From contig CAVVJT010000007.1 of NCBI GenBank assembly GCA_963748625.1, positions 1,120,001 to 1,184,000 on the forward strand: 64,000 nucleotides of DNA. Direction: 5' to 3'. Positions 15,959 through 26,740 of this stretch are shown here, piece by piece (the stretch's first letter is position 1; the number at the start of each line of letters is the position of its first letter). The stretch is from an uncultured Chloroflexia bacterium. GTDB lineage: Bacteria; Chloroflexota; Limnocylindria; Limnocylindrales; CSP1-4. Below the pieces are notes generated by a model. That model was not told where the DNA came from and did not search any database. It saw only the letters and a program-made list of their open reading frames with translations. Both the position numbers and the translations under genes were made by a program.

Positions 15959-17348
15959 ATGACCGACCTGCCGCCGACCACCGACGCGACCGTGCCGTCC
16001 TTCGACGAGGCGGTCGAGCCGGCCGTGGTCGATCCTAACCCGGTCGCGACGGATGTGGTCGAACCCACCGTGGTCGCCCAGCCGAAGTCCCGCAGTCGCG
16101 TCCCGGCGATCATCGCCGTGTCCCTGCTGGCCGTACTCGCGGGCACCGCGCTGTTCTTCTCCGGCTGGACGATGGGCCGCCACGCCGCGCTGACGCCCGG
16201 CACCCCCGTGGACGAGGCCGAGGCCTTCCAGCCGTTCTGGGACACGTGGCGAGCCGTCACGGAACGCTACGCCGGGCAGCGAGGTCGACCGGAAGAAGCT
16301 GATCGAGGGCTCGATCAAGGGGATGATCGGCGCGCTCGAAGACCCGTACTCCATGTACCTCACGTCCGACGAGTTCAAGGCGACGCTGCGCGACATCTCC
16401 GGCGAGTTCGAGGGGATCGGCGCCACCATCGGCACCGTGGACGCCACGGGAGCCAGCGCCGGCTGCACCGATCTTGGGCCGGACTGCCGCATGGTCATCG
16501 TCGCGCCGATCAAGGACTCGCCCGCCGACAAGGCCGGTCTCGAGCCCGGCGACATCGTGATTGCCATCGACGGCACCCCGGTTGCCGGCCAGACGCTCGA
16601 CGAGGCGCGCTCGAAGGTGCGCGGGCCGAAGGACACCGCGGTCGTGCTTGCGATCGAGCGCGACGGCGCCGCCCCAGTCGACATCGAGATCGTGCGGGCC
16701 GTGATCATCTCGCCCGAGGTGGAGAGCAGGGACCTCGCCGACGGGAAGGTCGGCTACATCCGCCTGTCGGGCTTCTCGGACCATGCGGCAGACGAGCTGG
16801 CGCGCGTCGCGGGCGAGGACGTCAAGGACGGTAAGGAGGCGCTGATCCTCGACCTGCGCGGCAACCCGGGAGGGTTCGTGACCGCCGCCCGCTCGATCGC
16901 CAGCCAGTTCCTGGCCGACGGCACGGTCTTCTGGGAGGAGGACGCCGACGGGAACCTCCAAGAGACGGTCGCGGAACCCGGCGGCAGCGCCACGGACACG
17001 GCCATTCCGCTGGTCGTGCTGGTCGACGGGGGGTCGGCGTCGGCGTCGGAGATCGTTGCGGGCGCGCTGCAGGACCGCGGCCGCGCGAAGCTGGTGGGCA
17101 CGAAGACCTTCGGAAAGGGCACGGTCCAGCAGTGGACCCAGCTCGAGGAGGACAGCGGCGGCTTCCGGCTCACCGTCGCCAAGTGGCTGACGCCCGACAA
17201 GACCTGGATCCACAAGGCGGGCATCACCCCCGACGTGATCGTGGACGAGGTGCCCGCGAAGCCGGGCGACGACCCGGTGCTCGAGAAGGCGCTCGACGTG
17301 CTGGGCTTCGGCGAGCCCGCCGGTTCGGCCCTGCGCGCCGCCGCCTGA
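15959..17348 (+). CDS. S41 family C-terminal processing protease with PDZ domain, frameshifted near 16278
   Basis: N-terminal TM; DPYS, GIGA, ILDLRGNPGG, SASASEIVAGAL, TFGKGTVQ, GITPD. Confidence 0.88.
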
Positions 17349-17375
17349 GCTTGAGCCAGCGCACAAACTGCGGGC

Positions 17376-17405
17376 TTGCCAACCTCGCACATCGTCGGGT
17401 AGGGT
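17376..17405 (+). promoter_or_regulatory. Sigma70-type promoter of a small transcript
   Basis: TTGCCA-18 nt-TAGGGT. Confidence 0.55.
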
Positions 17406-17433
17406 TCGCGCAGACGAAAGGAGGTGATGTGCA

Positions 17434-17484
17434 GTGATCGACAGTAGTAGTTGCTGCACCACCTCGGCGGAGATCGTCGCCTAG
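17434..17484 (+). CDS. Putative 16-aa peptide MIDSSSCCTTSAEIVA
   Basis: Preceded by AAAGGAGGTGAT (17417-17428); GGAGG is 9 nt before the GTG. Confidence 0.45.
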   Translation: MIDSSSCCTTSAEIVA

Positions 17485-17515
17485 AGACGATCCGGCCGGG
17501 TGGTCGGTAGCAATC

Positions 17516-17545
17516 GGACGCCGGTCCAGCGATGGGCCGGCGTTC
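17516..17545 (+). terminator. Terminator-like hairpin, 13-bp stem with GCGA tetraloop
   Basis: GGACGCCGGTCCA-GCGA-TGGGCCGGCGTTC; no long U tract. Confidence 0.5.
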
Positions 17546-17551
17546 GTGCGT

Positions 17552-17583
17552 CCGGGACCCGGGGTGCCCGGGACCCGGGGTGC
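17552..17583. repeat. 16-bp direct tandem duplication
   Basis: CCGGGACCCGGGGTGC x2. Confidence 0.8.
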
Positions 17584-17692
17584 CCGCGACCAGCGATGCG
17601 GGCCCGGAGTGCCTGCATCAGTGCCTCGGACCCGGAACCCGGACCTCCATGCGAAACTGACCCCCCACACGCTCACCCGAGGAGACGCCGCC

Positions 17693-18154
17693 ATGGGCGA
17701 GACCATCGCCCAGAACCGAAGAGCCCGCCACGACTACAGCATCGAGGACACCTTCGAGGCGGGTATCGTGCTGCGCGGCACCGAGATCAAGAGTGTCCGC
17801 GCCCACAAGGTGAGCCTGGCCGATGCGTACGCGCGGATCGAGCGCGACGAGGCCTGGATCATCGGCCTGCACATCGCTCCGTGGGAATCGACGGACCTCC
17901 GCTTCAACCACGAGCCCAAGCGCGCGCGGAAGCTGCTCCTCCACCGGCACGAGATCGACGAGCTGTTGGGCAAGACGAAGGCGAAGGGCCTCACGATCGT
18001 GCCCCTCGCGCTCTATATCAACGACCGCGGCAGGGCGAAGATGAACCTCGGGCTGGCCAAAGGCAAGCAGACGTGGGACCGCCGCCGCGAGATCGCCGAA
18101 CGGGACGCCAAGCGGGACATGGCACGCCAGGTCGCGGACGCCCGGCGGCGCTAG
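17693..18154 (+). CDS. smpB: SsrA-binding protein SmpB
   Basis: IAQNRRARHDY, FEAGIVLRGTEIKS, RKLLLHRHEI, LAKGKQTWDRR. Confidence 0.97.
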   Translation: MGETIAQNRRARHDYSIEDTFEAGIVLRGTEIKSVRAHKVSLADAYARIERDEAWIIGLHIAPWESTDLRFNHEPKRARKLLLHRHEIDELLGKTKAKGLTIVPLALYINDRGRAKMNLGLAKGKQTWDRRREIAERDAKRDMARQVADARRR

Positions 18155-25000: not shown

Positions 25001-25984
25001 TCAGGCTGGGTTCAGCCTCGTCACCGATGATCGGGCCAGCCGCTCTTCGAACCGCTTCGCAGCTGCGTCGAGCTTGTCCAGGTGGTCGGCCAGCCGCTGG
25101 CGGGCCTCTTCGGCGGCGGCATCGAGCCCGGTCAGCTCGAAGATGCCCCAGTGCTTCAACACCGGCATGAGCACCTCGTCGCGGTGGACCCGCAGGTCGT
25201 AGATGCCGGCCTTCGCGATGTCGGCCGCCTTGCGCATGAAGTTCTGGATCCCGGCGCCTGGCATCTCGAACCCGAGGACCTCGTCCACGATCGCCCGGAC
25301 CGCCGCGGACGGCTCGATCAGCAGGGCCGCCTTGAGGATGTCGCGGTAGAACACCATGTGCAGGTTCTCGTCGGCCGCGATCCGGACCATGATCTTGTCC
25401 GCCACCGGGTCATCCGAGTAGCGCCCGGTGTTGCGGTGCGAGATCCGGGTGGCAAGCTCCTGGAACGCCACGTACGCGAGGCCGTGGAGCGTGTCGGGGT
25501 TGTTCCGGTCGTAGCCCTGCTGGAGCTGCGCCATGCGGCCTCGCTCCAGGAGCGTCGGGTCGAAGTTCCGGGTGACCACGAGGTAGTCCCGCAGGACGAT
25601 CGCGTGCCGGCCCTCCTCGGCGGTCCAGCGGCCAACCCAGTTGAGCCATGCGCCATCGCCCTTGCCGAACATCCCGTGGATCAGGCGGTGATAGCTGGGC
25701 AGGTTGTCCTCGGTCAGGAGGCCGATCTCGAACGCCGTCTGCGCAACGCCGGTGAGCCGCGGCTGGTCCGGGGTCCAGGGCTCCTTGTCGAAGTCACGCC
25801 CCAGCCGGTAGGGGATGTACTCGTGGGGGAACCACTCCTGCGTCACCTTGAGGTGCCGGTCCAGGAGGCGGCCGGCCTCGGGCTCGAGCTCGGCGAGCAG
25901 GCGCCGATCGAGCGCTGGGACGTCGGACGGGTGGATGGGGTCGGCGGGGACCTGGAGCGCGTCGGGCGCGATCTCGTCGGGCAT
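25001..25984 (-). CDS. Acyl-ACP desaturase (ferritin-like diiron, DesA-like)
   Basis: WFPHEYIP, TEDNLPSYH, WTAEEGRH, YVAFQELAT, IAADENLH. Confidence 0.92.
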   Translation of the reverse strand: MPDEIAPDALQVPADPIHPSDVPALDRRLLAELEPEAGRLLDRHLKVTQEWFPHEYIPYRLGRDFDKEPWTPDQPRLTGVAQTAFEIGLLTEDNLPSYHRLIHGMFGKGDGAWLNWVGRWTAEEGRHAIVLRDYLVVTRNFDPTLLERGRMAQLQQGYDRNNPDTLHGLAYVAFQELATRISHRNTGRYSDDPVADKIMVRIAADENLHMVFYRDILKAALLIEPSAAVRAIVDEVLGFEMPGAGIQNFMRKAADIAKAGIYDLRVHRDEVLMPVLKHWGIFELTGLDAAAEEARQRLADHLDKLDAAAKRFEERLARSSVTRLNPA

Positions 25985-26369: not shown

Positions 26370-26740
26370 GGGGATGCGTGGTTTCGACAGGGCTTGGCTG
26401 CTTGGAGACGCGAGCCGAGGTGCCGTCAGGCCTCGTTAAACAGGCGGCAAACAGAAGTAACTGCCAACAAGCAGCCTGCTCTCGCCCTCGCCGCTTAGGC
26501 GGTAAGGTGAGCATGGAAGCGGCCTCCCCTTCGCGGGCCGTGGAAGTGTCACTCAGCGAAGGTGCAACCCCGGTGAGGTCACGTAGCCGGGAGCCAAGCC
26601 CGATCTAGGGACACGGGAATGGACCGGACGGAAGCCTGCCGATGGGCGTCCGCCGGTTGACGAAAATCATCGGACACGCTCGTAGTGGATCCAGGCGAAG
26701 GGTTCTGGACGGGGAGTTCGACTCTCCCCCATCTCCACCA
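26370..26740 (+). ncRNA. ssrA: tmRNA; tag ORF 26463-26498 encodes ANKQPALALAA
   Basis: 5' GGGGATG pairs with 3' CATCTCC-ACCA with a G3:U pair; TTCGAC near the 5' end; T-arm GGGAGTTCGACTCTCCC; tag ends ALAA-stop. Confidence 0.96.

Follow-up and report, generated by a model that had tools for sequence, protein, structure and literature searches.

Metastable hairpins that sequester the Shine-Dalgarno (SD) sequence occur in the mRNAs of type I toxins and also in leader-peptide switches, the erm leaders for example. A strand lying in or near a small open reading frame (ORF) pairs with the SD, and a third strand competes for this pairing. What is controlled in these cases is a toxin or a resistance gene located downstream. 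Here we describe a small gene, referred to below as the element, which has a comparable arrangement of predicted pairing strands, whereas its ORF is hydrophilic and no gene downstream of it is constant across classes. The element occupies positions 17376–17553 on the forward strand of a 64,000-nucleotide stretch (the window) from an uncultured Chloroflexia bacterium, between the genes of an S41 peptidase and smpB. It extends from a promoter to a terminator and its predicted RNA measures about 140 nt. To our knowledge, almost no small RNAs or micro-ORFs have been described in Chloroflexota.

Other described RNAs resemble the element in part. According to PMC7298713 and PMC7968998, rnTrpL from Sinorhizobium is an attenuator-derived dual-function RNA with the 14-residue leader peptide peTrpL, and like our element it is a short terminated RNA with an ORF of about 14 codons and alternative hairpins, active on its own. 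It is the by-product of a trp attenuator which uses Trp codons, whereas our element has no regulatory codons, no antiterminator in the folds examined and no downstream gene that is constant across classes.

The Caulobacter sRNA CC2171 (RF01867) is likewise a small transcript, with CGAAAGGAGGUGAU..CAGUG at its beginning and a GCGA-capped GC hairpin at its end. Its expression is reported for two alphaproteobacteria, C. crescentus and M. extorquens, without a known regulating condition (bioRxiv 10.1101/2022.01.24.477521). CC2171 is the best Rfam match of the window, at 19.8 bits (18.9–22.7 bits on relatives) compared with a gathering score of 75, and this match rests on the SD and the terminator, while the inner domain of CC2171 with its several hairpins has no counterpart in the element. 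The consensus of the actinobacterial sRNA Ms_IGR-5 (RF02471) also opens with a long SD whose 3' part is paired downstream, followed by a hairpin and a terminator. Homologs of Ms_IGR-5 are reported to carry ribosome footprints in M. abscessus and M. smegmatis (PMC4974804), and Ms_IGR-5 is reported as an independent transcription unit in Streptomyces (PMC8079986, PMC8780764). It scored 25.6 bits, with a gathering score of 45, on locus L066 of the small-genome form and only on this form, and a search of the window's genome at E ≤ 10 did not find it. The best match to any other Rfam family was Thr_leader, with 41.6 bits on one related locus (L182) and a gathering score of 55.

When Rfam 15 was applied to the window, the region and 16 related loci (window and permissive scans), no family reached its gathering score, and a literature search on Chloroflexota small RNAs, smpB leaders, CC2171 and Ms_IGR-5 yielded no description of the element. 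An initial annotation, made by a model from the letters of the DNA, had been unable to assign the element to a known family, and this agrees with our scans. Judged by covariance-model scores, this phylum-wide RNA without an Rfam match above threshold, which may still be distantly related to CC2171 and Ms_IGR-5, is a new family.

Extended SD, micro-ORF and their conservation

The leader of the element contains an extended SD, GAAAGGAGGTGAT (17416–17428), which is a perfect 13-nt complement of the 16S rRNA 3' end. The initial annotation had described the 12-nt complement AAAGGAGGTGAT (17417–17428), and the preceding G at 17416 extends the match to 13 nt; indeed, the 16S gene of this genome ends in the exact complement of the 13-mer. 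Within the 4.63-Mb assembly the 13-mer occurs twice, namely in the element and opposite the 16S 3' end. The duplex between leader and 16S tail reaches -26.5 kcal/mol, compared with a mean of -11.0 kcal/mol for 4565 crude ORF starts, 59 of which reach -20 kcal/mol or lower.

The 13-nt complement is followed after a spacer of 5 nt (17429–17433) by the start codon of a micro-ORF (17434–17484), which consists of GTG, 15 further codons and the stop TAG (17482–17484) and encodes MIDSSSCCTTSAEIVA. A mini-ORF, GTG-CAG-TGA (17429–17437), directly abuts the SD duplex. It owes its presence solely to the invariance of the leader, and it is lost in variants that start with ATG. Both reading frames lie where the initial annotation had placed them.

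Among 105 distinct members of the family the ORF comprises 13–17 codons, starting with GTG in 101 cases and with ATG in four, and ending with TAG in 68, TAA in 28 and TGA in nine; in 104 of these members the stop falls into one common alignment column. Inside the ORF, all six indel patterns are multiples of three (3, 6 or 9 nt), compared with 10 of 43 after the stop, and as the alignment program is blind to codons, the in-frame indels show selection for an open frame with a fixed end. Across all forms of the family the length ranges from 13 to 26 codons and most residue positions vary freely. The pN/pS ratio is 0.37–1.0 in the unpaired N-terminal codons, above 1 in the paired middle and 0.8–1.4 in the last four codons. 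The residues that do recur (C-T-T-S, G-I-T-S, S-I-T) are specified by codons made of helix-forming bases with invariant third positions, which points to a constraint at the RNA level; the conserved Cys, Thr and Ser codons coincide precisely with the leader-pairing bases.

The AGT-AGT-AGT run which the initial annotation had singled out is present, but it lies where the element varies most and lacks conservation. In addition, 8 of 30 same-genus copies have Tyr in place of the second Cys, and some other classes lack Cys altogether, so that a sensing of Ser or Cys, as proposed there, finds no support in the relatives. Start, frame and stop position are kept in these comparisons, while the peptide sequence appears barely constrained. 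From the conservation of frame, start and stop and from the strength and spacing of the SD we infer that the micro-ORF is translated. The C-terminus of its peptide was also considered as a mimic of the tmRNA tag, an idea that was dropped on comparison with the tag of this genome, ANKQPALALAA, which is unlike it.

Within the genus of the window, the element was found in 35 of 36 genomes with 84–92% identity over 17395–17555. An alignment of 30 same-genus copies has a mean column identity of 91%, and apart from one A>G exchange the extended SD is invariant in all of them. This conservation confirms, at the level of sequence, that the observed features exceed chance. In a second family, whose genomes measure about 1.1 Mb, 11 of 24 genomes match over 26–38 leader bases only. 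The loci of this family, when read directly, have the same layout, while the sequences of the hairpin and of the ORF, which encodes MSNDSCTAASHEVNA, differ; ATG stands in place of GTG in one copy and TAA in place of TAG in another. The leader of the second family reads GGTGGT and escapes a search with the leader motif, and its loci were gathered by BLAST.

A scan with the leader pattern, using one genome per species, returned at least 119 stretches. Eighty of these were fetched, nearly all of them titled Chloroflexota or Candidatus Limnocylindria, and they comprised 75 with a short ORF of the family type, of which two are truncated by the end of a contig, three with a 24-codon form and two chance matches. 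A covariance model (R1), which was built from the 105 distinct copies and used with a cut-off of E ≤ 0.01, matches every one of the 15 genomes sampled from the window's class and 46 of 151 genomes of the phylum, the latter number including one weak match in an unpublished genome (G098) which is used for no other result. The phylum tally overstates the true members, since three of the five lower-scoring matches that were read (L198, L199 and L201) are terminator-like hairpins only; one (L200) is unclear and one (L202) is a true long-form member. With the same model the element is found as a single copy in this genome.

All 13 loci read outside the class share the order of promoter, extended SD, start, ORF of 14–24 codons, hairpin and terminator, and in all of them the stop lies at or near the hairpin loop. 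SD, ORF and hairpin, whose conservation the initial annotation had proposed to check, are therefore kept across classes of Chloroflexota; with regard to its question whether peptide or structure is conserved, layout, frame and stop are maintained but the peptide sequence is not. The family spans genomes from 1.1-Mb freshwater forms to large Ktedonobacteria-like ones.

The promoter (17376–17405) consists of the -35 box TTGCCA (17376–17381), a spacer of 18 nt and the -10 box TAGGGT (17400–17405), exactly as first annotated, and from its position the transcript is predicted to start at about 17411–17413. A simple consensus promoter scan gave no score for this promoter. The blocks CTTGC and GGTAnGGT are kept at a fixed spacing in the 30 same-genus loci, and in several other classes near-consensus TTGACA/TAnnAT promoters are found at the same distance from the leader. 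At the other end, the putative terminator (17516–17553) combines a 13-bp GC hairpin with a GCGA cap (17516–17545; -26.5 kcal/mol, z -5.4), which had also been recognised initially, with the tail GTGCGTCC. On an alignment designated A3, 12 of the 13 hairpin pairs have changes on both sides. The proposed small transcript, self-contained and equipped with a maximal SD and a micro-ORF conserved in frame, is supported as far as sequence comparison goes.

Instead of a T run, the GTGCGT tail (17546–17553) may be the usual form of intrinsic terminators in this lineage. Several terminator-like hairpins among the 34 stable sites listed in this genome share this tail, as found in a fold-based genome scan, a strict hairpin finder having given one site only. 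Examples of GC-rich hairpins with a GTGCGT tail elsewhere in the genome are C10:932199 and C7:961531 on the minus strand and C10:170563 and C4:612950 on the plus strand, and in relatives the hairpins at L198 and L199 are also followed by it. The terminators of the element in other classes carry T runs at this position.

Competing folds of leader and ORF

The predicted RNA can adopt two alternative folds. In the closed state, the leader strand (17421–17438), made up of the SD core GAGGUG (17421–17426), an AU bulge and GUGCAGUGAU (17429–17438) including the start codon (17434–17436), pairs with an anti-SD strand inside the ORF, GUUGCUGCACCACCUC (17450–17465, codons 6–11), resulting in a 16-bp helix with a 2-nt bulge. 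The first 5 nt of the extended SD, GAAAG (17416–17420), stay unpaired in this fold and constitute a candidate toehold. In the open state the anti-SD strand pairs instead with an SD-like 3' arm, GCCGGGUGGUCGGUAGCAAU (17495–17514), which gives a long hairpin (17450–17514). Its apical part, GATCGTC/GACGATC (17472–17492), presents the TAG stop in a 7-nt loop (17479–17485). Because both folds use the ORF strand 17450–17465, they are mutually exclusive. The long hairpin with the stop in its loop had been described in the initial annotation, and the competing helix that hides SD and start codon is a feature which it overlooked.

The 5' part of the transcript (17412–17466) folds with -23.2 kcal/mol (z -4.9) and the long hairpin with -42.1 kcal/mol (z -5.8), none of 200 shuffles being as good in either case. 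Folding of the full transcript yields the closed form as its minimum-free-energy (MFE) structure (-77.2). The closed form also has the lowest free energy in most relatives, and the closed helix is the RNAalifold consensus of the 105-sequence alignment. In the MFE folds of relatives, from which these sequestration figures are taken (an imposed 'SD paired' constraint did not enforce the intended pairing), at least four of the five GGAGG bases are paired in 87 of 106 members and at least two start-codon bases in 91 of 106. In another class the corresponding strands read GAGGUGAUGCCU, AGGCAUCACCUC and GGGGUGAUGUCU, all three having changed together relative to the window, and an analogue of the SD-like 3' arm is present in other forms of the family.

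On a second alignment (A2), 95% of the cells of the anti-SD strand are paired, compared with 28–70% when the partner columns are slid. The best duplex of the leader with downstream sequence reaches -21.7 kcal/mol, whereas shuffled tails give -15.9 kcal/mol and are as good in 9 of 530 cases; for the 5' hairpin the values are -23.7 and -14.7 (5 of 530). The apical hairpin shows compensatory changes in two of its seven pairs within the genus, and at least two of the three bases of the stop codon lie in an apical loop in 100 of 106 members; loops and apical hairpin otherwise vary freely. In a test for riboswitch character no separate conserved ligand-binding core was seen, the invariant blocks being the SD, the start and the three pairing strands.

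Possible mechanism and alternative explanations

We give about an even chance to the explanation that the element is an autonomous, ribosome-gated micro-ORF RNA, which would be both a structured RNA and the mRNA of an ORF of 13–26 codons. The nascent RNA would fold into the closed form first, as synthesis of the anti-SD strand precedes that of the 3' arm. A 30S subunit could then seize the unpaired GAAAG, zip up the 13-bp SD duplex and thereby displace the anti-SD strand, which could settle on the 3' arm. One ribosome would initiate at the start codon 5 nt past the SD duplex, read the 16 codons and terminate in the loop, and the anti-SD strand, upon leaving the ribosome, would pair again with the leader. 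As this re-pairing would take place behind the ribosome, translation would be self-limiting. Since the peptide is barely constrained, the selected output would be the act of translation or the change of the RNA fold rather than the peptide.

The element combines the strongest possible ribosome-binding site with a peptide that is barely constrained and a predicted fold of its own that hides the start codon. It offers the opportunity to test whether a gene can be selected for its translation and not for what it encodes, and it would be a natural three-strand switch opened by the 16S tail. One might go further and regard the ribosome as the 'ligand', in that the RNA opens only to free 30S subunits whose mature 16S 3' tail is intact and each opening means one translation of the micro-ORF followed by re-closing, so that the element would serve as a phylum-wide gauge of free, initiation-competent small subunits. 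We consider this quite unlikely; if true, the gauge would adjoin the ribosome-rescue genes smpB and ssrA in Limnocylindria.

Several observations weigh against the ribosome-gated explanation. The ends of the transcript and its translation are deduced from the DNA, and the self-limiting translation as well as the irrelevance of the peptide are in turn deductions from the folds and the substitution pattern. The pN/pS ratio is a weak measure here, given the few codons and the overlapping RNA constraints. The sequences compared are related and their counts are not independent, and the invariance of the leader across the 80 loci of the pattern scan is partly imposed by the search pattern. With regard to the closed helix, the shuffle control for its column-wise covariation on A2 was uninformative (247 of 500 shuffles), and on A3 none of eight pairs change on both sides; as the SD side never varies, the helix is without compensatory covariation within the class. 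Forcing the segment from SD to start open costs 8.5 kcal/mol on average (range 3.1–19.1), which equals the cost with shuffled tails, and therefore the energy of sequestration is in itself no evidence of selection. A strong lock at an ordinary opening cost would nevertheless fit a built-in alternative partner, namely the 3' arm, although this is an argument from predicted folds and not a proof.

Contigs of three metatranscriptome runs from three studies cover 17424–17559, four of these contigs having 0–2 differences. They show that the element is present in RNA libraries and nothing more, since such contigs give no ends, strand or level and the libraries may contain DNA. They also extend 41–75 letters beyond the terminator, and one connects the element to smpB in a relative, which means either read-through or DNA in the libraries. 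Positions 17300–17423 and 17579–17640 were uncovered in these runs, which carries no evidential weight.

If the peptide itself were the effector, the element would be a tightly translation-controlled gene for a micropeptide of 13–26 residues and the folds would only set its amount. Such a micropeptide might be a regulator, a partner of an enzyme or of the ribosome, or the precursor of a modified peptide. Frame, start and stop are indeed conserved, an N-terminus of the form M-[I/S/N]-[D/E]-[S/Q/R] and a core C/G-x-T/G-S recur across classes, the pN/pS ratio is 0.37 for codons 2–5 in the 16-codon group, and the near-consensus promoters together with the maximal SD suggest that the product is wanted. 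We nevertheless regard this explanation as unlikely: the length and most positions are free, the ratio is about 0.8–1.4 elsewhere, the codons of the recurring residues fall exactly on bases paired with the leader or the 3' arm and have invariant third positions, Cys is missing from some classes, and no modifying enzymes recur nearby. Conversely, a purely non-coding small RNA (sRNA), acting as a 30S decoy via the anti-SD tail or through a C-rich strand that blocks the SDs of target mRNAs, would make the ORF incidental. It would account for the presence here of a 13-nt complement of the 16S tail that the genome has nowhere else, and for conservation at the nucleotide level including third positions, and the weak Rfam resemblances are to CC2171 and Ms_IGR-5, which are filed as sRNAs. 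A non-coding RNA would, however, have no need for six in-frame indel patterns out of six, for a start kept as GTG or ATG, or for all three stops at one column; moreover, the C-rich strand is paired in both predicted states, which makes this explanation very improbable. For a type I toxin-like mRNA silenced by SD sequestration one could cite that SD and start are hidden by a strand internal to the ORF, as in some type I toxin mRNAs. As the peptides are short, hydrophilic and rich in Ser, Thr, Cys, Asp and Glu, without any hydrophobic or membrane-spanning stretch, and as the element is a single copy at a fixed position within each lineage, such a toxin is extremely improbable.

The proximity to smpB suggests yet another explanation, already put forward in the initial annotation, namely that the element serves, within the window's class, as a 5' leader of smpB, where ribosome-dependent attenuation through translation of the micro-ORF would set how many transcripts pass the hairpin at 17516–17545. 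Of 75 Limnocylindria loci, 69 have a co-oriented smpB gene downstream, and four others break off before this can be seen; smpB likewise follows in 30 of 30 same-genus loci and in 10 of 12 second-family loci. The spacer between terminator and smpB measures only 32–78 nt in one lineage, a regular-expression search found a TTGNNN-N16-19-TANNNT promoter in none of 104 smpB spacers, and the RNA-library contigs mentioned above pass the hairpin or even reach smpB. Outside the class, however, the neighbours are unrelated, the element following an Asp/Glu racemase gene or SpoIIM and LysM genes, or lying between aldo-keto reductase and MoeA genes or upstream of a biotin ligase gene. Even within Limnocylindria there are two of 75 loci with inversions, in L089 of the element between peptidase gene and smpB and in L090 of smpB, which is convergent with the element; either rearrangement could be an assembly error. 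The smpB spacers are unconserved and many contain a -10-like TAnnnT close upstream of smpB, and the hairpin with its tail matches the ordinary terminators of the genome. In the sequences shown, this hairpin forms in the MFE fold as well as in the SD-free and SD-paired ones, and since it appears in every fold examined, no antiterminator was seen in any of them. The leader ORF has no run of regulatory codons either, the AGT run being variable and only the codons pairing with the leader conserved.

We hold the smpB leader to be distinctly unlikely. Because the linkage to smpB holds in the window's class but not in the others, because the neighbours differ there and because the terminators of the other classes carry T runs, neither the attenuation of smpB nor the sensing of Ser or Cys is supported. 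We conclude that the unit is probably autonomous and that its place beside smpB reflects a class-specific synteny, possibly with some read-through.

Surroundings of the element

The upstream neighbour of the element is the gene of an S41 (CtpA-like) peptidase (16323–17348, forward strand), and downstream, after a poorly conserved spacer of 139 nt, smpB follows on the same strand (17693–18154). For annotation this means that the interval which separates the S41 peptidase gene from smpB in Limnocylindria contains a gene.

A tmRNA gene (26370–26740, 132 bits), which encodes the tag given above, is located 8.2 kb downstream of smpB, and in the lineage of L172 it directly follows smpB. A borderline match to the ASdes sRNA lies at 25549–25615 (41.5 bits, threshold 40). 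Among the related loci, a 5S-rRNA-like match of 36 bits (threshold 38) is found beside the element in a low-GC genus (L184:1731–1844, minus strand), and at a contig end in another genus (L182:1721–1757, plus strand) the first part of a group II intron domain is matched with 29.2 bits (threshold 32).

In the lineage with 13 codons (..HATTEAVR; e.g. L085, L095 and L102), which is the one with the smpB spacer of 32–78 nt, a TAGNAT/TAGGGT box is located 9–20 nt before the ATG of smpB and there is no evident SD, from which it appears that smpB may be leaderless or nearly so in this lineage. In many same-genus genomes a motif, CGTGCGACACTGG (catgcgaaactgacc in the window, at about 17650–17665), recurs some 30–40 nt upstream of smpB, and this motif may be the -10 region or an operator of smpB. 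In addition, the spacer between the element and smpB, which is unconserved among relatives, contains a direct tandem repeat at 17556–17595 (two copies of GGGACCCGGGGTGCCC).

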